From: a virus
IMG/VR virus record: IMGVR_UViG_3300007734_000751
Span: 1 to 64,000 of that record
Length of the DNA: 64,000 nt
Strand: one strand, 5' to 3'
This document shows positions 1,264-56,122 of the stretch, piece after piece. The translations under genes were made by a program, and so were the position numbers. Under the pieces are notes generated by a model, which did no database searches, was not told where the DNA came from, and saw only the letters and a list, made by a program, of their open reading frames with translations. How positions within the stretch are numbered: position 1 is the first letter of the stretch; each line of letters opens with the position of its first letter.

Positions 1264-1270
1264 GGAAATC

Positions 1271-1540
1271 ATGGCTTATTACACAAAACTGACCGCATCA
1301 TCGCAGGTCAAAGTTGGTCTTGGCAAGCTAAAAGGTATTTTTGCCAGCTCTGGCTCATCGCCGACGGTTGCTGTTTACGATACGCCTGACGGCGACACCA
1401 ACGACCCTGTTGTTATCGCGCAATTTACGGCTGCAACGCCTGGAAATTACGTTTTTACGGCGGAAGGCATTAGTCTAAATAACGGCCTTTATGTTGTTCT
1501 CGGCGGCACAAATCCTGTGGTTACTATTCTTTTCGAGTAA
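1271..1540 (+). CDS. Small virion-associated beta-rich protein
   Basis: GAGG RBS; conserved in unit B (39,867-40,136); in the structural operon. Confidence 0.6.
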   Translation: MAYYTKLTASSQVKVGLGKLKGIFASSGSSPTVAVYDTPDGDTNDPVVIAQFTAATPGNYVFTAEGISLNNGLYVVLGGTNPVVTILFE

Positions 1541-1545
1541 TCTAA

Positions 1546-6799: not shown

Positions 6800-6821
6800 A
6801 TGTTTATGTAATTATGTTTAC

Positions 6822-6844
6822 TACCGACTAGCCGGATAGCTAGG
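6822..6844 (+). promoter_or_regulatory. Conserved 5'-UTR RNA element upstream of scaffold gene (hairpin CTAGC/GCTAG, possible pseudoknot)
   Basis: taccgactagccggatagctagg identical at 44,463-44,485 despite different flanks. Confidence 0.6.
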
Positions 6845-6861
6845 TCAGAAAGGAAGTTGCC

Positions 6862-7641: not shown

Positions 7642-7648
7642 TTAGGTC

Positions 7649-8845: not shown

Positions 8846-8846
8846 T

Positions 8847-8869
8847 AGAGGGGGCGAAAGCCCCTTCTT
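8847..8869 (+). terminator. GAAA-tetraloop hairpin after capsid gene (terminator or processing site)
   Basis: agagggggc-gaaa-gccccttct; equivalent cUUCGg hairpin in unit B. Confidence 0.6.
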
Positions 8870-8896
8870 ACATCTCATCTTTTGGAGTTCATTAAT

Positions 8897-9355
8897 ATGG
8901 CTACAACTACTGCAAATGCGGCTTATCCGCTTGACTCGTTTGGCCCAACCCCCGCCATTCCAAATGGCGATGGTGGCTATCAGCTCGGCGCAGGCAATCT
9001 TGTCGAAGCTAACATGCAAGTTGCTACCGTTACATCTGCTACCGGCGACATCACATTGACCGCCGCGCAGCTTCTTGGCGGTATCATTTCTTGCAATAAG
9101 GGCAGCGACGCCGCTCTTACGGTTACGACGCCTACGGCTGCGTTGATCGACACGGGTTTGCCTAGCGCAAAAGTCGGGTCTACTTTTGAAGTAACGATCA
9201 CCAACAACAATAACAGCGGCGCTTCGTCTACTGTTACGTTCTCAGGTGGCACAGGCGTTACCGTCGTCGGCTCTGGCACTGTTGCTCGGTATGGCGGATC
9301 AACGTATCGTTTTATCAAAACGGGCACCGCTGCATACTCAGCTTACCTGAAATAA
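8897..9355 (+). CDS. Capsid decoration/minor head protein
   Basis: GGAG RBS then ATG at 8,897; LTAAQLLGGII...TPTAA motif; homolog at 46,540. Confidence 0.6.
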   Translation: MATTTANAAYPLDSFGPTPAIPNGDGGYQLGAGNLVEANMQVATVTSATGDITLTAAQLLGGIISCNKGSDAALTVTTPTAALIDTGLPSAKVGSTFEVTITNNNNSGASSTVTFSGGTGVTVVGSGTVARYGGSTYRFIKTGTAAYSAYLK

Positions 9356-9356
9356 T

Positions 9357-9380
9357 AAGGTGGGCTTCGGCCCGCCTTTC
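9357..9380 (+). terminator. cUUCGg hairpin
   Basis: aaggtgggc-ttcg-gcccgcctt followed by pyrimidines. Confidence 0.6.
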
Positions 9381-9400
9381 TCTTTCCAGAGGGTATTTCC

Positions 9401-9871
9401 ATGCCAAACACCAAACCAGTTGGTGTTGCTTTTTCTGATCCTGAACTCGTCGCTGGCACAACCATCACGGGCGCAACGATCAGCGGCGGCACCGTTTCTA
9501 GCGCTACATCAGTTAGCGCCACTTCTGTTAGCGCAGGCGATCTCACCACAACAGGCGGTCTTTATCTGAAGACGGCTACTGTGGCGGCTACTGGCTCGAC
9601 ACAAGCCGACGCGGCTTCAGTGTCGGACGGTCTTACGCTTGTAACAGCGGCAGACGGCACTAAAGGCATTAAACTTCCTGCGGCGGTTGCTGGCCGCACG
9701 GTCATCTTAAAAAATGGCGCAGCCGCTATTTTAAAAGTATGGCCTGCTTCGGGCGACGGCATCAACGCAATCACGGTTGATTCCAACTATGTGCTTGCAG
9801 CCAATACCTCTTCGTTGCTCATCGCTTATGATGCGACGACCTGGTATTCTGTCCCGCTGCTTGCTTCTTAA
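9401..9871 (+). CDS. Head fibre/decoration protein
   Basis: MPNTKPVGVAFSDPEL N-terminus shared with the unit B gene at 47,038; T/A-rich. Confidence 0.55.
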   Translation: MPNTKPVGVAFSDPELVAGTTITGATISGGTVSSATSVSATSVSAGDLTTTGGLYLKTATVAATGSTQADAASVSDGLTLVTAADGTKGIKLPAAVAGRTVILKNGAAAILKVWPASGDGINAITVDSNYVLAANTSSLLIAYDATTWYSVPLLAS

Positions 9872-9873
9872 TA

Positions 9874-9900
9874 TATAGCGGCCTACGGGCCGCTGTATTT
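9874..9900 (+). terminator. cUACGg hairpin with U-tract
   Basis: tatagcggcc-tacg-ggccgctgta-ttt. Confidence 0.65.
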
Positions 9901-9916
9901 CTTTAGAAAGTAACCA

Positions 9917-10120
9917 ATGGCTGTTATTTATTTGAAACACCCCGAACATGGGGTTAAAGTGGCGTGTCTCGACCTAGAGGCCGAAGCCGACGAAGAGAAC
10001 GGCTGGATAAGGTTCGACCCAGATGACGACATACAGTGCATACGACCAGATTTGCGGAGCGTTGAGGCTCCTAGGAGTGTTAGCCGAAGGCGAAACGCCC
10101 TCGTCAGAAACAGCGAATGA
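9917..10120 (+). CDS. Small conserved head-region protein
   Basis: IYLKHPEHGVKVA...EAEADEENGW; conserved in B; overlaps the next gene by 98 nt. Confidence 0.6.
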   Translation: MAVIYLKHPEHGVKVACLDLEAEADEENGWIRFDPDDDIQCIRPDLRSVEAPRSVSRRRNALVRNSE

Positions 10121-10739
10121 CGCGCTGTATGCGCTGAATCAAATGATCGACAGTTGGGACACTGAGCGTTTGGCGGTGTTTTCAACTAAAGATGATGTCT
10201 ATCTTTGGCCTGCGGGTCAAATATCGCGCACTTATGGCCCTACCGGCGATGTGGTTGGCGAGCGCCCTGTCCTATTAGATGACTCAACCTATTTCCGCGA
10301 TCCACAGACCAACGTGTCTTACGGGATCAAGTTTATCAATCAACAACAATATGATGGCATTGCTGTTAAAACAGTAACGTCAACTTATCCACAGGTCATG
10401 TGGATAAATATGAGCTACCCAAATATTGAAATGTATGTTTACCCAGTGCCGTTGCGGTTGCTGGAATGGCATTTCATCTCCGTCGAACGGCTAACGCAGC
10501 CCGCGACGTTGGCGACTTCGATTCTCTTCCCGCCAGGTTATCTGCGCGCTTTCCGCTACAATCTAGCCTGCGAGTTAGCGCCTGAGTTTGGTATCGAGCC
10601 ATCGCCGACGGTTAGCCGTATTGCTATGTATAGCAAGCGCGACTTAAAGCGTATCAATAATCCTGACGACATCATGGCTCTGCCTTACAGCATCGTCGGC
10701 ACACGTCAGCGCTATAACATCTACGCGGGCAACTACTGA
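10023..10739 (+). CDS. Head completion/tail adaptor (P22 gp4-like)
   Basis: ALRLLGVLAEGETP...ALNQMIDSW...YNLACELAPEFG; position between head genes and gp10. Confidence 0.75.
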   Translation: MTTYSAYDQICGALRLLGVLAEGETPSSETANDALYALNQMIDSWDTERLAVFSTKDDVYLWPAGQISRTYGPTGDVVGERPVLLDDSTYFRDPQTNVSYGIKFINQQQYDGIAVKTVTSTYPQVMWINMSYPNIEMYVYPVPLRLLEWHFISVERLTQPATLATSILFPPGYLRAFRYNLACELAPEFGIEPSPTVSRIAMYSKRDLKRINNPDDIMALPYSIVGTRQRYNIYAGNY

Positions 10740-12517
10740 TGAAGACGCCGATCTTAGGCAGCTCGTATGTAACCAGAAGCCCAAACGCGGCGGACAGCCG
10801 CATGGTCAATCTCTTCCCAGAGGTTATACCAGAAGGCGGCAAAGAAGCCGCTTGGCTTCAACGAGCGCCAGGACTGCGGTATCTTCAAACATTAGGCGCT
10901 GGGCCAGTTCGCGGGCTTTGGACGTTTTACAGCGACGCTATAGCCCCTGCCCCTGGCGAACCTACTAAAGTAAATTATGGCTATGCTATTTCGGCTAAAA
11001 AATTATACCGTATTGACTCTGAATTTAACGCTACGGAAATAGGAACTATTGAAGGCACTACGCAAGTAAATATGACCGATAATGGTCGTCAGATGTTTAT
11101 TGCCGCCGATACTTATGGATATATCTATAATAGCACGTATCAAACGCTAGTTTGCAATACCACTAATACAAGCACAACAGTTGTTACCACAGACACAGCT
11201 TATGTTTACCCTGGGCAACCAGTTTCAGGCACAGGCATACCAACCGGCGCAACGGTTGCTAGTGTTACGGACGCGACGCATTTTGTATTGTCTGCCGCTG
11301 CAACTGCCACCAATACAGGCGTTACGTTAACATTTACGCCTTTTCTTACGCAGCTCACAACGCCTTTTGAAGGCGCGGTTGGGTGTGGATTTCTCGACGG
11401 TTGGTTCGTGTTTAATCAACCAAACAGTCAGATCTTTTGGGTTATGGATTCTACTGGCACAACGATTGATCCGTTGTATTTTGCCAGCGCGGAAGGCTCG
11501 CCTGACAATCTTGTCACACTGATTGTCGATCACCGCGAGATCTGGCTATTTGGAACTAATTCCGTCGAAGTCTGGTATGACGCTGGTCTTCCTGACTTTC
11601 CTATGGCGCGCATCCAAGGCGCGTTTAATGAAATCGGTTGTCTTGCCGCCTACTCAGTTGCCAAGCTCGACAACGGTTTGTTCTGGCTCGGCGCTGACGC
11701 GCGCGGTAATGGTATCGTCTACCGCTCAAAAGGCTATAGCGGCGAGCGTGTTTCTACCCATGCGGTTGAATGGCAGATCCAACAATACGCTAACCTGTCT
11801 GATGCGGTCGGTTATACTTATCAACAGGACGGCCACAGCTTCTATGTCCTAAACTTTCCGACCGCCAACACGACATGGGTTTATGACGTGGCGACGGGCG
11901 CATGGCATGAACGCGCTGGTTGGGAAAATGACACTTACACGCGGACACGCGGCAACTGCCAAATGAATTTCAATAATGAAATTGTCATCGGCGATTACCG
12001 CACAGGCGAGCTTTATGCCTATGATTTAAATGTATATTCAGAAGCCGGAACACGTCAAAAGTGGTTACGGTCATGGCGCGCGCTGCCGACAGGCCAGAAC
12101 GATCTGAACCGCACAGCGCAGCATAGTCTTCAGTTAGATTGTCAAGCGGGCGTCGGTCTTCCAGGCTACAGCCAAGAGGAAGTCAATGACATTATTTATA
12201 TTTATGATCGCGCACATGATTATATTCTTGACCGCGCTGGATCTCCTTTAAAAATTCGCGATTACGCCAATTATCAGATTACAGTTGGCGCTAATCCACA
12301 AGTCATGTTGCGTTGGTCTGATGATGGCGGTCACACTTGGTCAAATGAGCATTGGAAGTCTATGGGTCAGATCGGCCAGACTGGCTACCGCACGATTTGG
12401 CGTCGGCTTGGCATGACATTAAAACTTCGCGATAGAGTATATGAGATCTCCGGCACCGACCCCGTAAAGATCGCTATTATGGGGGCCGAGTTGCATGTGA
12501 GTCCGACCAATGCCTAA
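10739..12517 (+). CDS. Tail hub/DNA stabilisation protein (P22 gp10-like)
   Basis: FASAEGSPDNL, FGTNSVEVWY, TWVYDVATGAWHER, LRWSDDGGHTW. Confidence 0.9.
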   Translation: MKTPILGSSYVTRSPNAADSRMVNLFPEVIPEGGKEAAWLQRAPGLRYLQTLGAGPVRGLWTFYSDAIAPAPGEPTKVNYGYAISAKKLYRIDSEFNATEIGTIEGTTQVNMTDNGRQMFIAADTYGYIYNSTYQTLVCNTTNTSTTVVTTDTAYVYPGQPVSGTGIPTGATVASVTDATHFVLSAAATATNTGVTLTFTPFLTQLTTPFEGAVGCGFLDGWFVFNQPNSQIFWVMDSTGTTIDPLYFASAEGSPDNLVTLIVDHREIWLFGTNSVEVWYDAGLPDFPMARIQGAFNEIGCLAAYSVAKLDNGLFWLGADARGNGIVYRSKGYSGERVSTHAVEWQIQQYANLSDAVGYTYQQDGHSFYVLNFPTANTTWVYDVATGAWHERAGWENDTYTRTRGNCQMNFNNEIVIGDYRTGELYAYDLNVYSEAGTRQKWLRSWRALPTGQNDLNRTAQHSLQLDCQAGVGLPGYSQEEVNDIIYIYDRAHDYILDRAGSPLKIRDYANYQITVGANPQVMLRWSDDGGHTWSNEHWKSMGQIGQTGYRTIWRRLGMTLKLRDRVYEISGTDPVKIAIMGAELHVSPTNA

Positions 12518-13115
12518 TTATGTCGATAACAACACACAAATTCCTGCCGCTCGCGTTAAAATGAACGACGATTTGACAGGGTTTGTTAATCGACCTTGGT
12601 ATCGTTGGTTTTTTAATATGTATCAAGCTCTTGAAGCAGGGCGACGATACGGATCTTTTTATAGCACGGCGACGCAAACAGCGGCTGCGGCGAATACCGC
12701 CTACGCCATGACCTACAACGCCACGACTAAGAATAACCAAGGCACTGATCTTACTTACGGCGTCTATATTGGCACACCAATATCCCGCGTTTATGTAGAT
12801 AATACAGCTACTTATAACATACAATTTTCCGCGCAATTTGTTAGCACTAACGCCGCGTCTAAGAACGTAACAATATGGCCTGCTATTAATGGCACGGCGG
12901 TTACAGCCTCTGCTACGCAGATTACAATGTCTGGTTCTAGCGGTGCCTATGTTGCTGCGTGGAATTTTCTGCTAAACCTTAACTCCGGCGATTATTTTGA
13001 GTTATATTGGGAAACGACCAATACTAACGTCTCAATTTATGCCGCCGCCGCGTCGGGGCATATCCCCGCTATTCCTTCGGTCATCCTGACCGTAACAAGT
13101 TGTGTAGGTGTTTAA
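12510..13115 (+). CDS. Tail protein (needle/knob-like, C1q-like C-terminus)
   Basis: RPWYRWF N-terminal motif; YNIQFSAQ...AAWNF..GDYFELYW beta domain. Confidence 0.6.
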   Translation: MPNYVDNNTQIPAARVKMNDDLTGFVNRPWYRWFFNMYQALEAGRRYGSFYSTATQTAAAANTAYAMTYNATTKNNQGTDLTYGVYIGTPISRVYVDNTATYNIQFSAQFVSTNAASKNVTIWPAINGTAVTASATQITMSGSSGAYVAAWNFLLNLNSGDYFELYWETTNTNVSIYAAAASGHIPAIPSVILTVTSCVGV

Positions 13116-14312
13116 ATGACCGTTGTATCGCCCACAGCCAAAGCTCAATTTATAGACGCGGCTGGCGTCCCGCTTAATGGCGGTCTTCTCTATACCTACG
13201 CCGCTGGCACGACTACACCGCAAGCTACTTATACGGACTCAACGGGCGCGACAGCTAATAGCAACCCTATTGTTTTAGATTCGCGTGGCGAAGCCAACAT
13301 TTGGCTTGGGTCATCTACCTATAAATTCAAACTTTGCGATTCAACTAATACTGAGATTTGGACAGTTGATAACGTATCCGCACCAACAACGGCGCTGTCG
13401 CCGGTCTTGTCTGGTAACGTCACGATTGACTCTGACTCGGCAGGAACAGCGTTAACGATTACTCAGACAGGCTCTGGCCCTGTTCTTAGAGTTCAAGATT
13501 CGGTGGATCCTGACGCCACGCCATTTATCATTGATACAACTGGTCAAGTTGGTATTGGAACGGCGACACCGGCAAATGCCCTTGATATTGCAGGCGGCAC
13601 ATTTCAGATTTCATCTTCGGCAGGAACATCGCGCACGACTATATCGGCGGACGCTACGGATTCAATTTTTGCTGTCACTAATGACCGTAATTTTACAATT
13701 AAAACTAATACGGCGACCCGATTAACTATTAATTCTACCGATGCTACGTCTACTGTTCCTATAGTATTACCCGCTGCCCCAACAACAACTCTTCAAGCGG
13801 CTACTAAAGGATATGTTGACGGATTAACTGGCTCACCTTCAGGTATTATCGCACCTTTTGCCGGAACAACAGCGCCGTCAGGCTGGTTAGCTTGTGATGG
13901 TTCTGCGGTATCTCGGACAACTTATGCTACTCTTTTTGCCGCTATTGGCACGACGTGGGGCGCAGGTAACGGCACGACTACGTTTAACGTGCCTGACCTT
14001 CGCGGTATGTTTCTTCGCGGTACAGGCACTAACGCGACTGGATCGTCAAGCGGCGCTGTTGGCCCATCAGTCGGCACCTATGCGGCAGATACATATCTAA
14101 ACCATACGCATACAGATAGCGGTCATACGCATACGATAAATATTGGTAATAGTGGACTTACTTGGAATACCACAGCTACTTCAGGATCTGTCGTATTCCC
14201 TGGTTATTCTACCACTACAGCTACTGGCACCGCCAATATTCAAACATCCACGACCGGCGGCACGGAAACAAAGCCAAAGAACTATGGCGTGCTATACATC
14301 ATCAAGACCTAG
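13116..14312 (+). CDS. Tail fibre with tail-collar domain
   Basis: QFIDAAGVPLNGG...NPIVLDSRGEA attachment domain; PSGWLACDGSAVSRTTYATLFAAIG...FNVPDLRGMFLRG collar. Confidence 0.88.
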   Translation: MTVVSPTAKAQFIDAAGVPLNGGLLYTYAAGTTTPQATYTDSTGATANSNPIVLDSRGEANIWLGSSTYKFKLCDSTNTEIWTVDNVSAPTTALSPVLSGNVTIDSDSAGTALTITQTGSGPVLRVQDSVDPDATPFIIDTTGQVGIGTATPANALDIAGGTFQISSSAGTSRTTISADATDSIFAVTNDRNFTIKTNTATRLTINSTDATSTVPIVLPAAPTTTLQAATKGYVDGLTGSPSGIIAPFAGTTAPSGWLACDGSAVSRTTYATLFAAIGTTWGAGNGTTTFNVPDLRGMFLRGTGTNATGSSSGAVGPSVGTYAADTYLNHTHTDSGHTHTINIGNSGLTWNTTATSGSVVFPGYSTTTATGTANIQTSTTGGTETKPKNYGVLYIIKT

Positions 14313-14329
14313 TATTATAGTGAGGCATT

Positions 14330-15304
14330 ATGGATCCGTTCACACTAGCCCTTTTAGGTGGCTCCGCTTTAGCTTCAGGCGGTCTAAGCTACATGGGGTC
14401 AAAGCAAGCCGCTGGAGCGCAGCAACAGGCCGCGCAACAGTCGGGTATGCTTGGGCTATTAGCGCAGCAACAGGCTGCGGCTCAAGCTCAACGCATGGCC
14501 GAACAGGGCGCTGCGGCTGGGCGTGAGTATTATGATAAAGGCCGCGCGGATCTACTAGCTCAAGGCAAACTCGGCGCAGATACGGCGCGCGATTTCTACG
14601 GCCAGGGCGTAGGCTTTCAAGAGCCATACATGGGCGCAGGAGCTGGAGCTACCAATCAGCTCGCGTCGCTCTTTGGTCAAGGCGGCGCGTATACGCAACA
14701 GCCTACCTATGAACAACTCCAGATGGATCCTGGCTATGCCTTCCGGCAACAGCAAGGCGAGCAAGCGATGCTCAACGCCGCGCGGGGTGGTGGCCTAGCT
14801 GGATCGGGCGCTGCGTTAAAAGCTGCTACGCGGTATGGTCAAGAGGCTGGCAGTCAAGAATATACTAACGCCTATAATCGCTTTATGGCTAACCGCGCGC
14901 AGGCAGTTCAGGGTCTTCAGAATCTTGCAGGCACGGGCGCAGGCGCTGCGGGCACAGCTTCACAACTCGCCGGTAGCATGGGCAACGCTCTGTCGGGTAA
15001 TCAATTTAATGTTGGCTCTAACCTCGGCACGATGGCGTCAAACGCTGGTTCGACAGTCGCTGGTGCATACACCGGCGCGATCCCAACGATGGCGGCGCTT
15101 ACATCAGCTAACCCATACGGGCAAGCGATGGAGAATGTCGGACAAGCTAGAGCTTCTGGCTATGTCGGCGGCACATCAGCCCTCAGTAACGCATTAAACA
15201 GCGGTATGGGTAATGCGCTGGCGTATAACATGATGAGTAGGTATGCGCCTCAAGGCCCAACAGGCTCATATCAATTTGGCGGTCAAAATGTCCCTTATTT
15301 TTAG
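14330..15304 (+). CDS. Ejection (DNA transfer) protein 1, P22 gp7-like
   Basis: Hydrophobic N-terminus, A/G/Q-rich, MDPGYAFRQQQG...SGAALKA motif. Confidence 0.75.
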   Translation: MDPFTLALLGGSALASGGLSYMGSKQAAGAQQQAAQQSGMLGLLAQQQAAAQAQRMAEQGAAAGREYYDKGRADLLAQGKLGADTARDFYGQGVGFQEPYMGAGAGATNQLASLFGQGGAYTQQPTYEQLQMDPGYAFRQQQGEQAMLNAARGGGLAGSGAALKAATRYGQEAGSQEYTNAYNRFMANRAQAVQGLQNLAGTGAGAAGTASQLAGSMGNALSGNQFNVGSNLGTMASNAGSTVAGAYTGAIPTMAALTSANPYGQAMENVGQARASGYVGGTSALSNALNSGMGNALAYNMMSRYAPQGPTGSYQFGGQNVPYF

Positions 15305-15313
15305 GTGATTTAA

Positions 15314-16708
15314 ATGGTTGACTACACAATAGCTGCACGCGGCGCACAAGCTAACGCAGCGCCTGACTTTGCAAATATGCTGGCGCAATACCAGATGATG
15401 GGCGCTCGCGCGCAACAGCAACAGCTTCAACAGCGTGAATTAGACCGTCAGAATCAATTGATTAGCCTATTAGGCGGCGCGGATATTAACTCGCCTGAAA
15501 CTATTAACGCGCTTGCGAGAGCTGGGTATTTACCTGAGTCTATCAGCGTCATGGGCGCGCAACGCCAAGCGGAAGCGCAGCGGGCAGCGGCTGACGCACA
15601 GCGCGCTACCGCACTATATCATCAAGGTATGCTCGGCATAGCGCAGGCTAAACTTCCTTTTGAAGAGCGTAAACTAACGCAGGAAGCTCTTAAAGAAGAA
15701 CGGCTTGCTGGCGAAGCGGAAACTAAAGCCGCCAAGACGCAGTTAGAGCGCGATGCAGAGATGTTTAAAACCGCTGAAAATACAGCGGCTAAGATCGTCA
15801 TGGCTGGCGGCAAAGGCTATAAGCCTTTCTATGATAAATTACCCGATCCTTTGAAAAATGTATTGCGCCCTGACTACGACGAAGAGGCGTTGACAAACTT
15901 CACAACTCAGATGGCGACGTTCCAAGATCAAATTAAACGCCGCGATGAGTATGAGCTTAAAGAAAGAATTAATCCGGCTACAGGTCTTAAGGAAACAATC
16001 GCTATTCCTAAGTATCAGCCAGGAAAAGGCGCTACAGTTGTTCCTGGCAGCGCGGGCGGGATTGCGGATAAGTATAAATTTTTGGCTGGCCCTGAAGGAA
16101 CAGGTACGGTCATTCGCACAAATGAAGCTGCGGGGACTGCCGAGTCCTTACCGCTTACCAGCGGCGGTATCCCCGCACCGCGTGTTCAAGCTACGCCAGA
16201 AGGCAAATTAACGCCGCGCGTTGATATGGCCGCGCCTCCTGGCGCTCCGGCTAATGTGCCTGAACCTGTGCCTGGAACGCCTGAATTTACTAACCGTCGG
16301 TTTGCTAATCAAGTATTTAAAGATATCGAATACAATCCTAAGACAGGGGATGATCGGCTATCTACGTTAATTAAGAAATCTACTAGCGGCGGTCTTGAAG
16401 CGGCGGCGTCTGGCGTCAGCGGATTCTTTGGTCGATCTACGACGGGCGCTAAAGCTATTGCTCAGATCGGGACGCTTGTTAACGATATTGTCTTGGAAAG
16501 AATGAACGGCAAGTTAGGCGCTGGCGTATCTAACGAAGATCGTGAGTTCTTTAAATCCTTGCAAGGTAATCTCGACAATCCGTCGATTCCTGTCGAAACA
16601 CGATTGGCAGCATGGAATGAAGCCAAACGACGCATGGCAAAATATGCGGGCGACGCTGGTGCCGCACCAAAAGCAGGCGGCATTATTGACTTTGGGGATC
16701 TGAAATAA
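15314..16708 (+). CDS. Ejection protein 2
   Basis: Q-rich coiled-coil N-terminus, GAGVSNEDREF motif; position in ejection triad. Confidence 0.65.
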   Translation: MVDYTIAARGAQANAAPDFANMLAQYQMMGARAQQQQLQQRELDRQNQLISLLGGADINSPETINALARAGYLPESISVMGAQRQAEAQRAAADAQRATALYHQGMLGIAQAKLPFEERKLTQEALKEERLAGEAETKAAKTQLERDAEMFKTAENTAAKIVMAGGKGYKPFYDKLPDPLKNVLRPDYDEEALTNFTTQMATFQDQIKRRDEYELKERINPATGLKETIAIPKYQPGKGATVVPGSAGGIADKYKFLAGPEGTGTVIRTNEAAGTAESLPLTSGGIPAPRVQATPEGKLTPRVDMAAPPGAPANVPEPVPGTPEFTNRRFANQVFKDIEYNPKTGDDRLSTLIKKSTSGGLEAAASGVSGFFGRSTTGAKAIAQIGTLVNDIVLERMNGKLGAGVSNEDREFFKSLQGNLDNPSIPVETRLAAWNEAKRRMAKYAGDAGAAPKAGGIIDFGDLK

Positions 16709-18612
16709 TGGATGTTCGGCTCCCTGACGGCACAGTCATAAAAAATGTTCCTGAAGGAACAACCAAAGCGCAGCTTGTAGAAAAGCTGAAAGCTAATGGG
16801 TATGACATTGGCGCGCTTGAAGCCAAGCCATCCGAGCCTCAAGAGATCGTTACGACGCCGCAAAAGATAGCGGGCTATCTTGGCGAAACGATTGGAAATA
16901 TCCCCGCGAGCACACTTAATCTCGCGCAAGGCGTTTACGAGACTGCGACGCACCCACTTCAGACAGCGGAAGCATTAGGACAGGCTGCGATGAGTCCTGT
17001 CCAGACGGCTAAAGCTATTGGTGGATATTTTGGCGAACGCTATGCGTCGCCGTTAGAGACATTCAAGCAAGATCCTGTCGGCGTTTTATCTGACATATCC
17101 GCTATCGCAGGTGGTGTCGGAGCTGGCGCGCGTTTAGCCGGCAAAGGCCCATTAGCGCAGGGCGCTATGAAATTAGCGCAACAAACCGCACCTTCAAATG
17201 TTTTAGCGGGCATGGTGCAGGCTCCTTTTAACGCCGCCGCGCCTACTTACGAGTTCGCGCGTAACATGATGGCTCCTAAGTATGCAGCCTACATGGCGGC
17301 GACTGAGGGCAGAACGCCTGAAATTATCTCGGCGCTTCGCAGCCCACAAGCTCAGATTGTTCCTGGCGCTATGCCTACGGCGGCTCAAGCCGCTGCGCCT
17401 GTTGGTGCGGCTAAGTTCCAGGCTCTCGGCGCTACAGCCGCCGAGACAATGCCATCTGAATATATGCAACGTGCTCAAGAGCAAGGCGCGGCGCGGCTAA
17501 AAGCTTTAAGAACTGTAGCTGGATCTGAGCGCACGCTAGAAGCGGCTAAAGAAGGCCGGTCTAAAGAAGCTGCGTATCTTTACGGAAAAGCAGATAAGAT
17601 GCTTGTGCCTGAAGATAAGAAATTAGCTGAGTTACTCACACGTCCTTCGATGGACAAAGCGCTTGCTCGCGCTGAAGAGTTAGCCGCAGAGCGCGGCCAT
17701 ACCTTCCAGCTTGGCGAGACTAAACCTGCTACGACTGTAGAGTCCGCTATCGTCGATGAGTATGGTAACCCGATCAAGCGCACGATTCCTGCGACAACCG
17801 CTAAGTATCCTGTTAGCAGCTTGCACGCGCTCAAGATGTCTATGGACGATCTTATACGCAATCCAGAACGCTTTGGCATCGGCGCATCTGAAGCCGCTGC
17901 TATAGGTAACACGCGTAAGCAATTAATTAGCTGGATCAAACAAAAATCACCGCTGTATGAACAAGCGCGCGGACAATTCGCAAAACGTAGCGGCCCGATC
18001 AATCAAATGGAGATCGGCCAATATCTTGAAAGCAAATTGCTGGCACCGTTGAGCGAAGAAGCGCCGCAACGCGCAGGTGTGTTTGCGACGGCTGTTGAGG
18101 CTGCACCGCGCACGATCAAACAAGCGCTTGAAGGTGGTGGGCCTCGGTTTGAGAAACTGTCTCAGGTTTTAACGCCCGCACAAGTAAAAGCTATTGAGAA
18201 TATCCAAGCTGACTTAGCGCGCGAGGCGCAAGCAGATCGTATGGCGCGTGTGGCTAGAGAAGCTGCGCCTGACGCGACTGAAATAACCAAAGGTGTGTTG
18301 CCGCGTGCTCCTAACTGGATGAACCGCATCACATCGACCGTCAATAAAATAATGGATAAATCGCAGGGCGCGCTTGATCGTAAATATGCGCTTGAGATCG
18401 CAACTGAGATGTTGGATCCCGAACAGACTGCAAAGGTTCTTGAAGCCGCTGTGGCGTATGCGGAAAAGACTAAAAAGACCGCAGAAAAGATAAAAGGCAT
18501 GGGCGCAGGTGTAAAAGACACTGTGCAGAAACTTGGCCCCGCGATCTCTGGAGCTGTGACCGTTCAGAACGTGATGCGCCGGAGAGACAACCAGAACGCG
18601 ATGGCAAGATAA
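16708..18612 (+). CDS. Ejection protein 3
   Basis: Ala-rich helical protein; DVRLPDG N-terminus; last gene of the triad. Confidence 0.65.
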   Translation: MDVRLPDGTVIKNVPEGTTKAQLVEKLKANGYDIGALEAKPSEPQEIVTTPQKIAGYLGETIGNIPASTLNLAQGVYETATHPLQTAEALGQAAMSPVQTAKAIGGYFGERYASPLETFKQDPVGVLSDISAIAGGVGAGARLAGKGPLAQGAMKLAQQTAPSNVLAGMVQAPFNAAAPTYEFARNMMAPKYAAYMAATEGRTPEIISALRSPQAQIVPGAMPTAAQAAAPVGAAKFQALGATAAETMPSEYMQRAQEQGAARLKALRTVAGSERTLEAAKEGRSKEAAYLYGKADKMLVPEDKKLAELLTRPSMDKALARAEELAAERGHTFQLGETKPATTVESAIVDEYGNPIKRTIPATTAKYPVSSLHALKMSMDDLIRNPERFGIGASEAAAIGNTRKQLISWIKQKSPLYEQARGQFAKRSGPINQMEIGQYLESKLLAPLSEEAPQRAGVFATAVEAAPRTIKQALEGGGPRFEKLSQVLTPAQVKAIENIQADLAREAQADRMARVAREAAPDATEITKGVLPRAPNWMNRITSTVNKIMDKSQGALDRKYALEIATEMLDPEQTAKVLEAAVAYAEKTKKTAEKIKGMGAGVKDTVQKLGPAISGAVTVQNVMRRRDNQNAMAR

Positions 18613-18872
18613 TGAATAGCGAGATCCAAGTATTCTTCGACGTAGCGGTCGGCGTGATCGGCGTTCTGGGCGGATGGGTATTGAATACCGTCTGGAGCGC
18701 CGTGAAAGATTTGCAGACCGCTGATAAAGAACTGGCTGAAAAAGTAGGCCAGATCGAAGTTCTTGTCGCTGGACGCTATGTTACCCGCGAAGAGTTTAAC
18801 ACGACACTTAGCCAAGTGTTCATAAAGCTCGATACGATTCGAGATATTGTGAGCCAGAAAGCGGATAGATGA
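18612..18872 (+). CDS. Single-TM membrane protein, holin/antiholin candidate
   Basis: N-terminal TM (VFFDVAVGVIGVLGGWVL) plus coiled coil; directly upstream of endolysin. Confidence 0.55.
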   Translation: MNSEIQVFFDVAVGVIGVLGGWVLNTVWSAVKDLQTADKELAEKVGQIEVLVAGRYVTREEFNTTLSQVFIKLDTIRDIVSQKADR

Positions 18873-19372
18873 AAGAGAACTACGCCCAGGCGCTGAAACA
18901 AGTCCTGAAGTATGAGGGCGGCTACGTTGACCATCCAAAAGACCCAGGTGGCCCGACGAATAAGGGAGTTACGCAAGCGGTTTATGATAGCTGGCGCAAG
19001 TCACAGAATCTCCCAACGCAAAGCGTGCGCGCTATCGCTGATTCAGAAGTTGCGGCGATTTACAAGAACCTATACTGGGATCGTATTTCTGGAGATAATC
19101 TGCCCTCTGGCGTTGATTTTGCTGTGTTCGATTATGCTGTCAATTCCGGCGTAAGCCGCGCAGCCAAGACCTTGCAGGCTGTTGTCGGCGTTACGCAAGA
19201 CGGCGTGATCGGGCCTGCAACCATAGAAGCTACTAAGACATATGTTGCGATGGCTGTTACCAACAAACGCTTGGCGTTTATGCAGTCCTTGTCGATCTGG
19301 TCTACGTTCGGCAAAGGATGGGCTGCACGGATCGCTGACGTCAAGAACCAGATCAAAGCATTATGCGGATAA
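18869..19372 (+). CDS. Endolysin, glycosyl hydrolase family 108
   Basis: EGGYVDHPKDPGGPTNKGVT motif; FDYAVNSG; QDGVIGPAT. Confidence 0.92.
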   Translation: MKENYAQALKQVLKYEGGYVDHPKDPGGPTNKGVTQAVYDSWRKSQNLPTQSVRAIADSEVAAIYKNLYWDRISGDNLPSGVDFAVFDYAVNSGVSRAAKTLQAVVGVTQDGVIGPATIEATKTYVAMAVTNKRLAFMQSLSIWSTFGKGWAARIADVKNQIKALCG

Positions 19373-19458
19373 TCTTACTCTGCCTTTTACTTTCTGGCTG
19401 TGCGCCGGCTAAGTATATCTTTGACTGCACAGTGACGCAGCCGGAGAACTGTAACTAA
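19363..19458 (+). CDS. 31-aa lipoprotein (not in ORF track)
   Basis: MRIILLCLLLSGCAPAKYIFDCTVTQPENCN; lipobox LSGC; coupled start/stop. Confidence 0.55.
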   Translation: MRIILLCLLLSGCAPAKYIFDCTVTQPENCN

Positions 19459-19571
19459 TGGATCCGCGATTGGCGTATATTGTTTACGCTGTCGCTGCCG
19501 CCGCATCGGTTGCTTACGGGGCCAAACTATTATTCATGCTCGGCATTTATTTCAGGAGGACAATGGAATGA
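19458..19571 (+). CDS. 37-aa membrane peptide (not in ORF track)
   Basis: MDPRLAYIVYAVAAAASVAYGAKLLFMLGIYFRRTME; homolog in B at 56,875. Confidence 0.5.
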   Translation: MDPRLAYIVYAVAAAASVAYGAKLLFMLGIYFRRTME

Positions 19572-19729
19572 TTAAGAATTGGAAAACCACAATCCCTGGC
19601 ATCATCACTCTCATCGGCGTTCTCTTTAACGCTTGGCAGACCAAGACGCTTGACTGGTCTTCGCTGCAAGCAGCGCTTGTCGCCATCGGTCTTATCGGCG
19701 CTAAAGATTTTAACGTCACGGGCGCATGA
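19568..19729 (+). CDS. Holin-like two-TM protein, 53 aa (not in ORF track)
   Basis: AGGAGG RBS; MIKNWKTTIPGIITLIGV...ALVAIGLIGAKD; conserved in B. Confidence 0.7.
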   Translation: MIKNWKTTIPGIITLIGVLFNAWQTKTLDWSSLQAALVAIGLIGAKDFNVTGA

Positions 19730-19938
19730 CAACTGTTATCTTAATTGGCATAGTTTTAGTCGTTCTGTATGGGGCGGCTAAGATGCTAACGGCTGAAGCC
19801 TATGAGCGCGGACGACGCGAGGAAGTTGTGCGTCGATTAGACCTTGCAGCCAAATTAAAAGAAAGACAGACCAATGTCGTTATGGCCCCTAAAACCGTGG
19901 ACGATACTGCTACTGATCTCGACAACGGCACTTTCTAG
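19726..19938 (+). CDS. i-spanin (Rz-like)
   Basis: N-terminal TM then charged helix; overlaps downstream lipoprotein. Confidence 0.7.
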   Translation: MTTVILIGIVLVVLYGAAKMLTAEAYERGRREEVVRRLDLAAKLKERQTNVVMAPKTVDDTATDLDNGTF

Positions 19939-20095
19939 CTGCCAGTCAACGAGCGGCGGGTCTTGCCCGCCACTCGCTCAATACTCACTCGCTCAACAGC
20001 GCGCTGTCGCCAGTGAACTTCGGCGGCTCCGTGGAACCGAAACGGCTCAGTTTATCGTCGATTACGGCAAGCTCCGCGCGGCGTGTAGACTTTAG
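19874..20095 (+). CDS. o-spanin (Rz1-like lipoprotein)
   Basis: Lipobox LSSC, CPPL, C-terminal Cys; overlaps the Rz 3' end. Confidence 0.72.
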   Translation: MSLWPLKPWTILLLISTTALSSCQSTSGGSCPPLAQYSLAQQRAVASELRRLRGTETAQFIVDYGKLRAACRL

Positions 20096-43887: not shown

Positions 43888-43889
43888 AA

Positions 43890-47339: not shown

Positions 47340-47355
47340 CCTTAGAAAGTTACAC

Positions 47356-51774: not shown

Positions 51775-52761
51775 ATGGATCCGTTAACATTAGGCTTATT
51801 GATGGGTGGCACGTCGTTAGCGACGGGCGGACTCAATTATCTAGGTTCCAAGCAAGCCGCTGGGACGCAGAGCGCGGCTGCACAACAGTCCGGCATATTT
51901 GGTATGCTGGCTCAACAGCAAGCGCTTCAGCAAGCCAAACAAATGGCCGAACAAGGCGCTGCGGCTGGACGTGAGTATTATGATAAAGGCCGCGCGGATC
52001 TTTTAAACCAAGGTAAGATCGCAGCGGATACGACTAATCAATTTTATGGGCAAGGCATAGGCTATCAACAGCCTTATATGCAAGCTGGCGAACAAGCGAC
52101 GAATCAGCTCGCGCAACTTTACGGCCCTAATGGCGCTTATACGCAGATGCCAACCATCGCTCAGATTGAAATGGATCCTAGCTATGCGTGGCGCACCCAA
52201 CAGGGGCAACAAGCACTTCTTAACGCAACGCGGGCTGGCGTAGGCGGCGCTAATGCCGGATCTGGTGCAGCGGGTAAAGCTTTTATTAACTACGGTCAGA
52301 ACGCTGCCAGCCAAGAATATGCTAGTGCGTATAATCGCTTTATGGCTAACCGCGCTCAAGCTGTTCAAGGTCTTCAAAACTTGGCCGGCACAGGCGCAGG
52401 TGCAGCTCAGACAGCGACAGGTCTAGCCGGTAGCATGGGCAATGCGTTGTCAGGCAATCAATTTAATCTCGGTTCCAATCTCGGTACGATGGCGTCTAAC
52501 GCTGGTTCGACGGTCGCCGGCGCTTACACAGGCGCGATTCCAACGGTCGCGGGGCTTGCGTCCGCTAATCCTTACGGCACAGCGGCTGAGAATGCTGCCG
52601 CAGCTCGCGCTTCAGGATATGTTGGCGGCACGTCAGCGCTGGGCAACGCCCTACAGGGCGGCGTCAACGGTATGTTGGCTTATAGCATGTTAAACCGTAT
52701 GCCGCAGCAAGCCACTAATTTTGGCGCTTATGGGCCGCAACCAACTTATAATGGGCTTTAA
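51775..52761 (+). CDS. Ejection protein 1 (B)
   Basis: Homolog of 14,330-15,304. Confidence 0.75.
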   Translation: MDPLTLGLLMGGTSLATGGLNYLGSKQAAGTQSAAAQQSGIFGMLAQQQALQQAKQMAEQGAAAGREYYDKGRADLLNQGKIAADTTNQFYGQGIGYQQPYMQAGEQATNQLAQLYGPNGAYTQMPTIAQIEMDPSYAWRTQQGQQALLNATRAGVGGANAGSGAAGKAFINYGQNAASQEYASAYNRFMANRAQAVQGLQNLAGTGAGAAQTATGLAGSMGNALSGNQFNLGSNLGTMASNAGSTVAGAYTGAIPTVAGLASANPYGTAAENAAAARASGYVGGTSALGNALQGGVNGMLAYSMLNRMPQQATNFGAYGPQPTYNGL

Positions 52762-52763: not shown

Positions 52764-54176
52764 ATGCCAGTTGACTACACAATAGCTGCACGCGGCGCAC
52801 AGGCTAACACAGCTCCTGACTTTGCGAATACACTCGCTCAGTATCAGATGATGGGCGCACGCGCACAGCAAGAACAGCTTCAACAGCTTCAAACGCAAAA
52901 GCTTCAACAAGAGCAACAACAACAGAACATGTTGCTTAATACTTTGCGTAATTTGGATATTAACTCACCTGAAGCGATTAATGTTTTAGCGCGCGGCGGC
53001 AATCTATCTGAAGCTTTGTCTGTTCAACAAGCTCAACGGCAAAATGAAGCGCTTCGCGCCCAAACGGCAGCGCAAAATGCGACCGCTGGATATCACACAG
53101 GTATGCTTGGTTTAGCTCAAGCTAAACTTCCGCTTGAGCAAAGAAAGCTAGAGCAAGAAGCTCTTAAAGAAGAACGTCTTGCAGGAGAGGCTGAAATTAA
53201 GTCTCAAAAAACTGCATATGAGCGCGACGCTGAAGTATTAAAAAAGCATGAAAACCTTGCTGCTAAAATCGTTATGAACGGCGGTAAAGGATATGATAAT
53301 TTTTATAAAAATGCGCCAGATGAATTAAAGCCATATCTTTCGCCGAAATATGACGAAGATATGCTCACCAATTTTACAACTCAAATGTCGACGGTTCAGG
53401 AAAACTTGAAGCGCGCGCATGAGTTTGAGTTAGTTGATAGGATCAATCCTCAGACTGGTCTTAAAGAAAAAATTGCTGTTCCTAAATACGCGCCTGAAAA
53501 GGGCGGCAAAGCTGTTGCTGGCACGCAAGGCGTTGTTCAAGAAAAATACGGATTTATGCCTGGGCCTGAAGGAACTGGCACTGTTATTCGTACCAATCCT
53601 CTAGCTGGCACCGCCGAGTCTTTACCGCTTACCAGCGGCATACCTGCGCCCCGCGTCCAAGCGCCGCCTGAAGGCAAGCTAACGCCCCGCGTTGATATGA
53701 ACGCGCCTCCTGGCGCTCCGGCTAACGCTCCTGAACCTGTGCCTGGAACGCCTGAATATACTAATCGTCGTTTTGGCCGTGAAGCTCTAGAGGCTATTGG
53801 TTTTAATCCGCAGACCGGCGAAGACCGCGTGTCAAAATTGATTAGCCAATCTACAAGTGGTGGATTGCAATCCATCGGTGCAGGCGTTCGCGGGTTTCTT
53901 GGTAAAGGCACGTCAGGTGCTCAAGCTATTGGTCAGATCAAACCAATCATCAATAACCTTATTTTGGAAAAAATGAATGGTAAGCTCGGCGCAGGCATAT
54001 CAAACGAAGACCGCGAGTTCTTTAAATCGACGCTTGGCAATCTAGATGACCCAAGCATTCCGTCAAACGTAAGACTTGCATCTTGGGAAGAGGCTAAACG
54101 CCGGCTTGCTAAGTATGCTGGCGGTATGGCCGCACCATCTGATAACCGTCCATCTCTTAACGAGATCTTTAAATAA
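52764..54176 (+). CDS. Ejection protein 2 (B)
   Basis: Homolog of 15,314-16,708 with a different C-terminal peptide. Confidence 0.65.
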   Translation: MPVDYTIAARGAQANTAPDFANTLAQYQMMGARAQQEQLQQLQTQKLQQEQQQQNMLLNTLRNLDINSPEAINVLARGGNLSEALSVQQAQRQNEALRAQTAAQNATAGYHTGMLGLAQAKLPLEQRKLEQEALKEERLAGEAEIKSQKTAYERDAEVLKKHENLAAKIVMNGGKGYDNFYKNAPDELKPYLSPKYDEDMLTNFTTQMSTVQENLKRAHEFELVDRINPQTGLKEKIAVPKYAPEKGGKAVAGTQGVVQEKYGFMPGPEGTGTVIRTNPLAGTAESLPLTSGIPAPRVQAPPEGKLTPRVDMNAPPGAPANAPEPVPGTPEYTNRRFGREALEAIGFNPQTGEDRVSKLISQSTSGGLQSIGAGVRGFLGKGTSGAQAIGQIKPIINNLILEKMNGKLGAGISNEDREFFKSTLGNLDDPSIPSNVRLASWEEAKRRLAKYAGGMAAPSDNRPSLNEIFK

Positions 54177-56122
54177 TGGCTAATTTCTCCGCTAAGATCC
54201 AGACAGCGCGCGATGCCGGATACTCTGATGAAGAGATCAAACGGTTTCTTATGTCTACGCCTGAAGCGGAGAAAGCCAAAGAAGCTGGCTATACAGACGT
54301 AGAGATCGCGTCACATTTTGGATTAGCGCCATCAGAACCTAAAGAGATCGTTACGACTCCGCAAAAGATTGCCGGATATGTTGGCGAGACATTAGGCAAT
54401 ATTCCTGAAAGCACGCTTAATTTTGCTCAAGGCATTTATGAAACCGCCACCAATCCTATGCAAACGGTGGAAGCATTAGGACAGGCCGCGATGAGTCCTG
54501 TCCAGACGGCTAAAGCTATTGGTGGTTATTTAGGTGAACGCTACGGGTCGCCTACACAGGCATTAGAAACTTTTAAGACCGATCCTGTTGGCGTGTTGTC
54601 TGATATTTCTGCGGGTGCAGGTATTGGTGGATTGACTGCGCGGCTTGGCGGTAAAGGCGTTTTAGCTCAGAATGCAATGCGTTTAGCTGAACGCACTGCG
54701 CCTTCAAACGTATTAGCCGGCGCTTTACAAGCTCCTTTTAATGCCGCCGCGCCTACTTATGAGTTTGCGCGCAACATGATGGCTCCTAAGTACGCAGCAT
54801 ACATGGCGGCGACTGAGGGCAGAACGCCTGAAATTATCTCGGCGCTTCGCAGCCCACAAGCGCAGATCGTTCCTGGCGCTATGCCTACAGCGGCGCAAGC
54901 CGCTGCGCCTGTTGGTGCGGCTAAGTTCCAGGCGCTCGGCGCTACAGCCGCCGAAACAATGCCGTCCGAATATATGCAACGTGCTCAAGAGCAAGGCGCG
55001 GCGCGTCTAAAAGCATTAAGAACTGTAGCTGGATCTGAGCGCACGTTAGAAGCGGCTAAAGAAGGCCGGTCTAAAGAAGCTGCGTATCTTTACGGAAAAG
55101 CAGATAAAATGCTTGTACCTGAAGATAAAAAACTAGCTGAGTTACTAACGCGTCCTTCGATGGACAAAGCGCTTGCTCGCGCTGAAGAGTTAGCCGCAGA
55201 GCGCGGCCATACGTTCCAGCTTGGCGAAACTAAACCTGCTACGACTGTAGAGTCCGCTATCGTCGATGAATATGGCAATCCGATCAAGCGCACAATTCCT
55301 GCAACGACCGCTAAGTATCCTGTTAGCAGCTTGCACGCGCTCAAGATGTCTATGGACGATCTTATACGCAACCCAGAACGCTTTGGCATCGGCGCATCTG
55401 AAGCCGCTGCTATAGGTAACACGCGCAAGCAATTAATTAGTTGGATCAAACAAAAATCACCGCTGTATGAACAAGCGCGCGGTCAGTTTGCCAAGCGTAG
55501 CGGGCCGATCAATCAAATGGAGATCGGCCAATATCTCGAAAGCAAATTGCTGGCACCGTTGAGCGAAGAAGCACCGCAACGCGCAGGTGTATTTGCGACG
55601 GCTGTTGAGGCTGCACCACGCACGATCAAACAAGCGCTCGAAGGTGGTGGGCCTCGATTCGAGAAACTGTCTCAAGTATTAACGCCCACACAAGTAAAAG
55701 CTATTGAGAATATCCAAGCTGACTTAGCGCGCGAGGCGCAAGCAGATCGTATGGCGCGTGTGGCTAGAGAAGCTGCGCCTGACGCGACTGAAATAACTAA
55801 AGGTGTGTTGCCGCGTGCTCCTAACTGGATGAACCGCATCACATCGACCGTCAATAAAATAATGGATAAATCGCAGGGCGCGCTTGATCGTAAATATGCG
55901 CTTGAGATCGCGACTGAGATGTTGGATCCCGAACAGACCGCAAAGGTTCTTGAAGCCGCTGTGGCATATGCGGAAAAAACTAAAAAGACCGCAGCAAAAA
56001 TAAAAGGCATGGGCGCAGGTGTAAAAGAAACTGTGCAGAAACTTGGCCCCGCGATCTCTGGAGCTGTGACCGTTCAGAACGTGATGCGCCGCAGAGACAA
56101 TCAAAACGCGATGGCGAGATGA
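54176..56122 (+). CDS. Ejection protein 3 (B)
   Basis: Homolog of 16,708-18,612 with a different N-terminal domain. Confidence 0.65.
   Translation: MANFSAKIQTARDAGYSDEEIKRFLMSTPEAEKAKEAGYTDVEIASHFGLAPSEPKEIVTTPQKIAGYVGETLGNIPESTLNFAQGIYETATNPMQTVEALGQAAMSPVQTAKAIGGYLGERYGSPTQALETFKTDPVGVLSDISAGAGIGGLTARLGGKGVLAQNAMRLAERTAPSNVLAGALQAPFNAAAPTYEFARNMMAPKYAAYMAATEGRTPEIISALRSPQAQIVPGAMPTAAQAAAPVGAAKFQALGATAAETMPSEYMQRAQEQGAARLKALRTVAGSERTLEAAKEGRSKEAAYLYGKADKMLVPEDKKLAELLTRPSMDKALARAEELAAERGHTFQLGETKPATTVESAIVDEYGNPIKRTIPATTAKYPVSSLHALKMSMDDLIRNPERFGIGASEAAAIGNTRKQLISWIKQKSPLYEQARGQFAKRSGPINQMEIGQYLESKLLAPLSEEAPQRAGVFATAVEAAPRTIKQALEGGGPRFEKLSQVLTPTQVKAIENIQADLAREAQADRMARVAREAAPDATEITKGVLPRAPNWMNRITSTVNKIMDKSQGALDRKYALEIATEMLDPEQTAKVLEAAVAYAEKTKKTAAKIKGMGAGVKETVQKLGPAISGAVTVQNVMRRRDNQNAMAR

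Follow-up and report, generated by a model that had tools for sequence, protein, structure and literature searches.

Why should the end of one gene and the beginning of the next be exchanged together? The question is raised by a junction between two DNA-ejection genes in a viral stretch of 64,000 nucleotides (nt), positions 1 to 64,000 of IMG/VR record IMGVR_UViG_3300007734_000751 (hereafter the window), in which two related genomes of P22-like podoviruses, A and B, are found. In both, a short segment spanning the stop of the second ejection gene and the start of the third is replaced, so that the C-terminal peptide of the second protein, gp2 (the tail), and the N-terminal domain of the third protein, gp3 (the head), differ together. 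The reading favoured here, with a probability of about 0.6, is that tail and head form a cognate docking pair that joins the protein of the periplasmic tube to that of the inner-membrane channel.

A replaced segment across the gp2/gp3 junction

Self-comparison of the window by blastn aligns 9877-16652 with 47318-54123 (77.7% identity) and 16827-19359 with 54328-56872 (87.4%). Left unaligned are 16653-16826 in A (174 base pairs, bp) and 54124-54327 in B (204 bp), which span the stop and the start. An earlier interpretation of this DNA (the sequence-only reading) had placed the break of homology at AKYAG and its return at PSEP, and these intervals bear it out. A DNA alignment including relatives gives the same two boundaries. 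The replaced junction segment is real, and an alignment artefact is excluded. At the protein level, BLASTP finds 67% identity between the two gp2 proteins as far as AKYAG, and 93% between the two gp3 proteins from residue 25, just before PSEPxEIVTTPQKIAGY, with an alignment that stretches weakly across EKLKANGY in A and EKAKEAGY in B. The AlphaFold2 models of the heads differ: head A is modelled as a beta-hairpin with one helix, head B as four short helices with a mean predicted local distance difference test score (pLDDT) of 82.2. The segment can therefore fairly be called fully replaced, as had been claimed, despite the weak extension. In both genomes, the gp2 stop and the gp3 start overlap as TAATG. 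The genes, given as open reading frames (ORFs) with lengths in amino acids (aa), and the replaced segments are as follows.

15314..16708, + strand: gp2 of genome A, 464 aa, ORF, positional counterpart of P22 gp20; ends ...EAKRRMAKYAGDAGAAPKAGGIIDFGDLK
16708..18612, + strand: gp3 of genome A, 634 aa, ORF, positional counterpart of P22 gp16; starts MDVRLPDGTVIKNVPEGTTKAQLVEKLKANGYDIGALEAKPSEPQEIVTTPQKIAGY
52764..54176, + strand: gp2 of genome B, 470 aa, ORF; ends ...EAKRRLAKYAGGMAAPSDNRPSLNEIFK
54176..56122, + strand: gp3 of genome B, 648 aa, ORF; starts MANFSAKIQTARDAGYSDEEIKRFLMSTPEAEKAKEAGYTDVEIASHFGLAPSEPKEIVTTPQKIAGY
16652..16705, + strand: replaced end of gp2 A, with the Gly/Ala/Pro linker DAGAAPKA and tail A, GGIIDFGDLK (16676-16705); unaligned between A and B
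16708..16827, + strand: head A, residues 1-40 of gp3 A (MDVRLPDGT...KLKANGYD...); no alignment with B
54123..54173, + strand: replaced C-terminal segment of gp2 B, GMAAPSDN and tail B, RPSLNEIFK; unaligned between A and B
54176..54328, + strand: head B, residues 1-51 of gp3 B, with two helix repeats of the AGYSDEEI type; no alignment with A

Genome A pairs the tail ...GGIIDFGDLK with the head MDVRLPDGTVIKNVPEGTTKAQLVEKLKANGYD, and genome B the tail ...DNRPSLNEIFK with the two AGYSDEEI-type repeats. In the tail alignment, a short C-terminal element lies behind a low-complexity linker rich in Gly, Ala, Pro, Ser and Gln, and a small N-terminal domain follows downstream. Pfam has no family at E<=1 over tail A or head A, and over head B it gives sub-threshold matches only (RepB_primase_C, E=0.0087; DUF5333, E=0.15). 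A head-A profile run against the PDB finds no match better than E=0.03 and no credible relative. Homology of heads or tails to known docking-domain families was not found in Pfam or the PDB.

Pairing of tail and head classes

The weight of the association between tail and head is carried by a wider survey and not by the co-swap in a single window. For each type of head, the survey kept the best 80 of its relatives, which number 338 for head A, 133 for head B, 288 for the head of P22 and 385 for that of Sf6. Tail A, written as [VI][VI]D[FWY][GN]x[LM]K at 0-2 residues from the C-terminus of the upstream ORF, precedes head A in 80/80 viral-contig loci (best 80 of 338) and, in the pooled loci, in 82/82 distinct head-A junction DNAs. 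Counted as distinct combinations of head and tail, head A goes with tail A in 62 of 62 and never with tail B. Head B goes with tail B, written as [RK]xx[LI]xx[IFL][FWY] (examples are RPSLNEIFK, RPPLSSFFGK, KPSLADIFGN and RPSLDDIFGGKKK), in 51 of 52 combinations from the best 80 of 133 viral-contig relatives and never with tail A; the remaining junction has neither motif. All ORFs of 150 aa or more in these loci give 793 distinct C-termini, among which the two expressions have 71 and 51 matches, essentially gp2 tails only.

Scans can also start from the tail. The tail-A DNA pattern (V-I-D-F-G-x-L-K-stop) occurs in 46 stretches of viral contigs; 34 end a gp2-like ORF, and the 33 that are assessable all lead to head A, 32 directly and one (L161) past an inserted ORF, while short-frame chance matches and non-stops account for the remaining 12. 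In metagenome contigs, the pattern with a TAA end gives 44 stretches. Head A comes next in 29/29 gp2-like tails, and the rest comprise one unrelated DUF1559 protein, one stretch without downstream sequence and 13 short chance frames. For tail B, 28 stretches are found in viral contigs, 27 with a downstream ORF, and all 27 of these ORFs open with an AGYS-repeat start. In bacterial genome contigs, mostly of Burkholderiales, a tail-A variant accompanies head A in 9/9 loci (8 clear, 1 divergent). Over the 62 head-A and 52 head-B distinct junctions and the tail-first scans, no A/B cross pair was found. An association between upstream tail class and downstream head class had been proposed in the sequence-only reading as the test of its pairing, and these counts decide that test in its favour.

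The hosts of the head-A genes in bacterial contigs (L271-L279) are mainly Burkholderiales (Roseateles, Pelomonas, Comamonadaceae and Thiobacillaceae), with single cases in Caulobacteraceae, Endozoicomonas and a Paludibacter bin.

Phage P22 likewise has a conserved gp20 tail and gp16 head. Its gp20 ends ...SYTSKSGIKFTVE, and the gp20/gp16 overlap is also TAATG. In viral contigs, P22-type heads follow ...SKSG[IV]xFTVE tails in 80/80 loci (best 80 of 288), on at least three different linkers, and Sf6 gp16-type heads (MAKAWKDVIAS...) follow ...SNFSSLWGD tails in 80/80 (best 80 of 385). Sorted by the C-terminal body of gp20, these loci distribute as follows.

P22-like body, P22 tail and head: 30 loci
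P22-like body, Sf6 tail and head: 37 loci
Sf6-like body, Sf6 tail and head: 43 loci
Other body (5 P22-like variants by eye), P22 tail and head: 50 loci
Any body, mixed tail and head: 0/160 loci

Phage L is a cultured example. Its gp20 agrees with that of P22 at 90-100% identity over ~210 residues, as far as ...YNVNVG, and past this point it ends in ...SNFSSLWGD, the Sf6 tail, adjoining an Sf6-type gp16. Among ten cultured phages, four tail classes correspond one-to-one with four head classes, and body identity within a class goes down to 24-37%.

Class 1: P22, epsilon34, APSE-2
Class 2: Sf6, L, HK620, CUS-3, Brookers
Class 3: Sodalis phage phiSG1 (L446), tail ...DELVNKYLGGR, head MMAYNREQLMTALRNADAAGD...
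Class 4: Salmonella phage Lumpael (L448), tail ...KEKYGFLPEGL, head MANIFDQFDQ... then a lysozyme-like domain

In phiSG1, the C-terminal body of gp20 is Sf6-like, yet tail and head are both different. By these comparisons of sequence, the tail goes with the head downstream of it, not with the body of its own protein.

Most upstream and downstream bodies of head-A loci have no BLASTP match to genome A or are 20-45% identical, and the heads are 66-100% identical. Around the gp3 start, genome A and L021 share 73-100% DNA identity between about -45 and +105 and are random beyond; L016, L020 and others are alike. Genome B and its relatives (L013, L004, L011 and others) are 89-100% identical from about -38 to +97, with flanks at 50-85%. 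The left edge of this island lies just before APSDNRPSL, even in L013, whose gp2 otherwise differs strongly. At E<=1e-3, 1314 representative proteins match the head-A profile, with bodies of 51-2643 aa, and the match starts within the first 3 residues in 147 of the best 150.

Some observations on the cassette stand apart. At 54138-54272 and at the same place in L004, L011, L013 and L014, the 89-100% identity includes synonymous sites, which points to recent spread of a ~135-bp cassette or to an extra nucleotide-level constraint. A protein of 705 aa (P0039) has, besides its N-terminal copy, a second, internal head-A motif at 499-534, before a glucosaminidase-like region. In a large cellular-looking repeat protein (P0117, 2078 aa), seven stretches match the central head-A profile (..NVPxGTTKAxF..). 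As a small structural motif, the strand-turn-helix core of head A may be widespread.

Codon positions and spacing tell what is conserved. At the 82 class-A junctions, entropies at codon positions 1/2/3 are 0.70/0.48/1.33 bits in the tail and 0.59/0.40/1.52 bits in the head, and the replacements are conservative (F/W/Y, L/M, I/V). Peptides kept over near-saturated third positions indicate selection on the peptides, not on RNA; judged by codon position, tail and head are both under protein-level purifying selection. The gaps between the genes are -1, 1, 2, 3, 8 or 14 nt, and once 409 nt. In L161 (reverse strand), a 136-aa ORF lies exactly between tail and head, its start overlapping the gp2 stop. 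The inserted ORF has a weak HNH endonuclease match (E=0.0017, under the Pfam cut-off), and the head-A gene comes downstream of it. In five loci with tail B upstream (L229, L232, L233, L234 and L244), the downstream protein has another, lysozyme-like start, the AGYS match being further in. The variable gaps, the insertion and the lysozyme-like starts indicate that the pairing is independent of junction architecture.

These results bear on a first alternative, namely an RNA or DNA element at the junction (TAATG coupling, a ribosome-binding, recombination or homing site) of which peptide conservation would be a by-product. Such an element would agree with the TAATG overlap in 62/82 class-A junctions and with the identity island of the close B relatives. 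It does not agree with near-saturated third positions next to conserved first and second positions in class A, with a spacing that runs from -1 to 14 nt and includes one 409-nt split, or with tail B beside the five proteins with lysozyme-like starts. Codon entropy and variable spacing thus make translational coupling or an RNA element a poor candidate for the main reason of the conservation. As main cause, an RNA-level explanation is largely refuted, and an element of either kind is highly improbable.

Proposed docking and its alternatives

The nearest known counterpart is the gp20-gp16 pair of P22. In the available passages of the hybrid studies (PMC10461980/PMC10883804), P22 carrying Sf6 gene 16 alone or Sf6 gene 20 alone gives no plaque-forming phage, and P22 carrying Sf6 genes 16 and 20 with its own gene 7 is functional in Salmonella. 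The same passages describe non-functional virions when P22 gp20 lacks its last 33 or 66 residues, and the authors conclude that a gp16-gp20 interaction is required. One of them adds that Sf6 gp16 is incorporated in defective P22 particles despite the non-cognate gp20 (PMC10461980). The accessible parts of a 2026 preprint on the P22 channel present gp20 as a dodecameric periplasmic tube with a C-terminal plinth against the cytoplasmic membrane, where gp16 assembles. According to these parts, gp20 436-471 (the last 36 residues) and the whole of gp16 are not resolved atomically in situ, and low-confidence AlphaFold3 models place gp20 436-471 differently with and without gp16 1-205. An older study, cited in the same excerpts, could not purify gp16 apart from gp20. 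The PDB has no chain for P22 gp20 or gp16.

In the docking reading, a connector would have two parts: a tail peptide, borne by a flexible linker, at the membrane-proximal C-terminus of the gp20 counterpart that would form the periplasmic tube, and a small N-terminal head domain of the gp16 counterpart that would form the inner-membrane channel. The tail would bind a head of its own class, and the tube would thereby capture and position the membrane protein once both proteins had been ejected into the cell envelope. The pairs fall into several non-homologous classes (A and B in the window, P22-type and Sf6-type in enterobacterial phages, and probably more). If only matched pairs work, recombinants that move a head would persist only when the matching tail comes along, giving a cassette of 150-200 bp across the gene boundary. 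Chances are about even for the broader proposition that P22-like podoviruses have at least 4-6 non-homologous, class-specific connectors, in which the tube protein plugs its final dozen or so residues into the N-terminal 30-50 residues of its inner-membrane partner, and which have spread between unrelated bodies as cassettes of ~150-200 bp. If so, connector class would decide which ejection-gene modules recombine productively, and would set which phages can donate a gp16-like protein in trans during co-infection.

The sequence-only reading had suggested interchangeable docking modules that chain ejection proteins for packaging or ordered ejection and that, as far as its author knew, had not been described. 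The docking part gains from the class association, from protein-level purifying selection and from the way the tail tracks the head. The packaging part is disfavoured: in the available text, Sf6 gp16 still enters P22 particles with a non-cognate gp20, and these are non-functional (PMC10461980), so that channel assembly after ejection is the likelier role. As for novelty, the claim was too wide, since it is already in print that gp20 and gp16 must come from one phage and that P22 gp20 needs its last 33 residues. Already known, then, is the functional dependence between gp20 and gp16 in P22; the specific tail-head pair and its classes appear to be new. A full-text literature search, made without the 2011 mosaic-boundary study, found no description of this pair or its classes in the text available, and the accessible passages on P22 hybrids and the channel do not place the interaction in the final dozen gp20 residues or the first 30-50 of gp16, and describe no classes. 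In that 2011 study, Casjens and Thuman-Commike reportedly described non-random mosaic boundaries in P22-like virion genes, and they may already note this correlation.

Several points weigh against docking. That tail and head touch, and when and where they would act, is our inference. The co-swap of A and B in one window is weak evidence by itself, the exchanged pieces being adjacent DNA. Many of the loci are related to each other and do not count as independent events, and weaker relatives lie outside the best 80; both regular expressions were composed after the data were seen. AGYS-type heads without tail B occur in L117/L118 and, in an earlier scan, in L121/L122, and phage DSL-LC05, whose gp3 body is 44% identical to that of A, has neither head class. 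The head-A model is of low confidence (mean pLDDT 65.8). The P22 experiments apply to the window only by analogy of position, and, in the passages available, the P22/Sf6 hybrids exchanged whole genes and the incompatibility was not localised (PMC10461980/PMC10883804). In the low-confidence AlphaFold3 model with gp16 1-205, from the excerpts of the 2026 preprint, the C-terminal segment of gp20 wraps the gp20 plinth, unlike docking on the gp16 head. Finally, gene gaps are of -1 to 14 nt in 81/82 junctions, over which co-transfer is expected from linkage, and a homologous crossover is impossible inside a non-homologous cassette. A complex prediction with the head-A alignment and the last 35 residues of gp2, run without controls, scored 0.17 (mark 0.32) and weighs neither way on binding.

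The last of these objections lead to linkage as a sufficient cause. Tail and head would then function separately, for example in contacts of the tail with the plinth or the membrane and of the head with the membrane, and travel together as an adjacent non-homologous block. The A/B cassette edges do coincide with the return of DNA homology, mosaicism is rampant around the cassette, and the AlphaFold3 model just mentioned folds the P22 segment on its own body or plinth. A tail that served its own protein should, however, co-vary with that body. Instead, the same P22-like gp20 body bears either tail according to the downstream head, and tail A is found on upstream bodies that BLASTP cannot relate; this decoupling counts against linkage only. 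So do the lack of any mixed pair despite synonymous-site saturation in class A, the survival of the pairing across a 409-nt insertion and, in the available hybrid passages, the requirement of whole-gene P22/Sf6 hybrids for both genes from one phage. Linkage accounts for co-transfer, not for the decoupling of tail and body or for the failure of single-gene hybrids, and we regard it as the main rival, though an unlikely one. If it were nevertheless the whole story, the junction would be a well-conserved recombination cassette, useful as a marker, without a mechanism.

A common third partner, that is one class-variable phage or host envelope component which tail and head each match, is less likely again. 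The association data are equally compatible with it and with direct docking, and the accessible P22 literature includes a host inner-membrane protein, YajC, that is essential for P22 DNA entry. Yet classes A and B occur on ejection-protein bodies that are 67-93% identical, and the P22-type and Sf6-type classes are both found in phages of the same enterobacterial hosts. Moreover, P22 with Sf6 genes 16 and 20 and P22 gene 7 is functional in the hybrid work, as far as its text is available, so no further Sf6 component is needed. A comparison of window positions 1-20000 with the records of L004, L006, L014 and L015 gives 8-31% difference almost everywhere, which masks any co-varying third locus.

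Direct docking has several parallels. In the docking domains of polyketide synthases and non-ribosomal peptide synthetases (PKS/NRPS), a short C-terminal element is matched to a small N-terminal element of the next-encoded polypeptide, in several non-interchangeable classes that are portable between protein bodies. The candidate pair has no sequence relation to them in Pfam, would act in a virion or ejectosome and not in an enzyme assembly line, and owes its pairing here to sequence comparison. In tailspikes and tail fibres, a conserved N-terminal virion-binding module stays matched while the rest is exchanged mosaically. That module lies in one gene, whereas the window module is divided between two consecutive genes, at the end of the first and the start of the second. 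In T7, according to the available part of a review, the N-terminal part of the third ejection protein, gp16, stabilises the C-terminal part of the second, gp15, as a 'molecular tape' in the post-ejection tunnel (PMC8954989). Unlike the window pair, an extended gp16 stretch of ~70 residues cements the gp15 interfaces there, and the same part of the review describes neither a terminal peptide with a mini-domain nor a swapping of classes (PMC8954989).

The survey narrows the question of how a podovirus periplasmic tube joins the protein that opens the inner membrane to a short list of candidate residues, a dozen of one protein plus 30-50 of the next, and the hypothesis is directly applicable to the genetically tractable P22, L and Sf6. 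The pairing would offer a molecular reason for the failure of P22/Sf6 single-gene hybrids; a P22 specialist is unlikely to be astonished by it. It also illustrates in detail how a mosaic module can lie across a gene boundary, a point of importance when phage genomes are cut into modules in comparative and engineering work.

Genome layout and gene context

The IMG/VR record is linear and has 72,555 bp, of which the window is the first 64 kb. Self-comparison places genome B head to tail after genome A, at an offset of 38,596 bp, A 1-26422 being collinear with B 38597-63931 at 66-89% DNA identity and with several blocks unalignable. CheckV rates the 72,555-bp record as 100% complete. Two genomes of 66-89% identity in one linear record may reflect a chimeric assembly of co-occurring strains, a heterodimeric concatemer or a tandem prophage.

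By their gene content, the window phages are P22-like podoviruses, with a P22-type tail and head. PHROG matches include a portal (phrog_156), a major head protein (phrog_283) and, weakly, a gp4-like adaptor; a collar-type tail fibre and an endolysin are also encoded. The tail hub, by its match to phrog_578, marks the phage as one with a P22-type tail. The hub and the first genes of the two ejection trios are as follows.

10739..12517, + strand: P22 gp10-type tail hub (head closure Hc3), phrog_578, E=4.1e-112
14330..15304, + strand: first ejection gene of genome A, 324 aa, P22 gp7 relative, phrog_598 'DNA ejection', E=4.4e-18
51775..52761, + strand: first ejection gene of genome B, 328 aa, inside the collinear block 9877-16652 / 47318-54123

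The trio sits between the fibre and the lysis genes, the endolysin coming after it. P22 gp7 matches the same family, phrog_598 (E=2e-95), and the window thus holds a gp7 homologue as the first trio gene of a P22-type ejection set. Downstream of the P22-type hub come three consecutive genes of P22-like size, 324/464/634 aa in A and 328/470/648 aa in B against 229/471/609 aa in P22. The likeness of gp2-gp3 to gp20-gp16 lies in this gene order after the gp7 relative and the gp10-type hub, in similar sizes and in the TAATG overlap. The difference is that gp2 and gp3 are without significant profile similarity to the P22-like proteins; heads A and B are absent from Pfam.

Sequence homology of gp2 and gp3 to P22 gp20 and gp16 was looked for and not found. 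Four hhalign comparisons of the gp2 and gp3 family profiles with P22 gp20 and gp16 and with P22-like family alignments gave probabilities of 0.2-4.4%, none of them significant. The PHROG families differ as well, gp2 having phrog_33352 against phrog_917 and phrog_770 on the P22 side. In the absence of significant profile similarity, gp2 and gp3 are treated as positional counterparts only, not as family members. The sole family match of gp2 A is phrog_33352, of unknown function; gp2 A has no Pfam family, and gp3 A has a family in neither Pfam nor PHROG.

Megablast of 15314-18612 against 50,697 phage records gave no match, and tblastn of phage records matched five, the best being phage DSL-LC05 at 44% identity. 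This nearest cultured relative of gp3 has its product annotated as 'putative DNA transfer protein'. Its junction (L196, 3743-4102) is of a third kind, in which gp2 ends ...AARVLKGK and gp3 opens with NPFAQF repeats.

Far upstream of the ejection genes, internal direct repeats of ~115-400 bp with 68-79% identity occupy 1989-3542, in a 780-aa ORF at 1546-3888. Their counterparts in genome B are at 40586-42052, within an 858-aa ORF at 40142-42718. The block that follows, 3025-6808 in A and 41672-44449 in B, is unalignable between the genomes. The two repeat-bearing ORFs resemble a repeat-domain virion protein.

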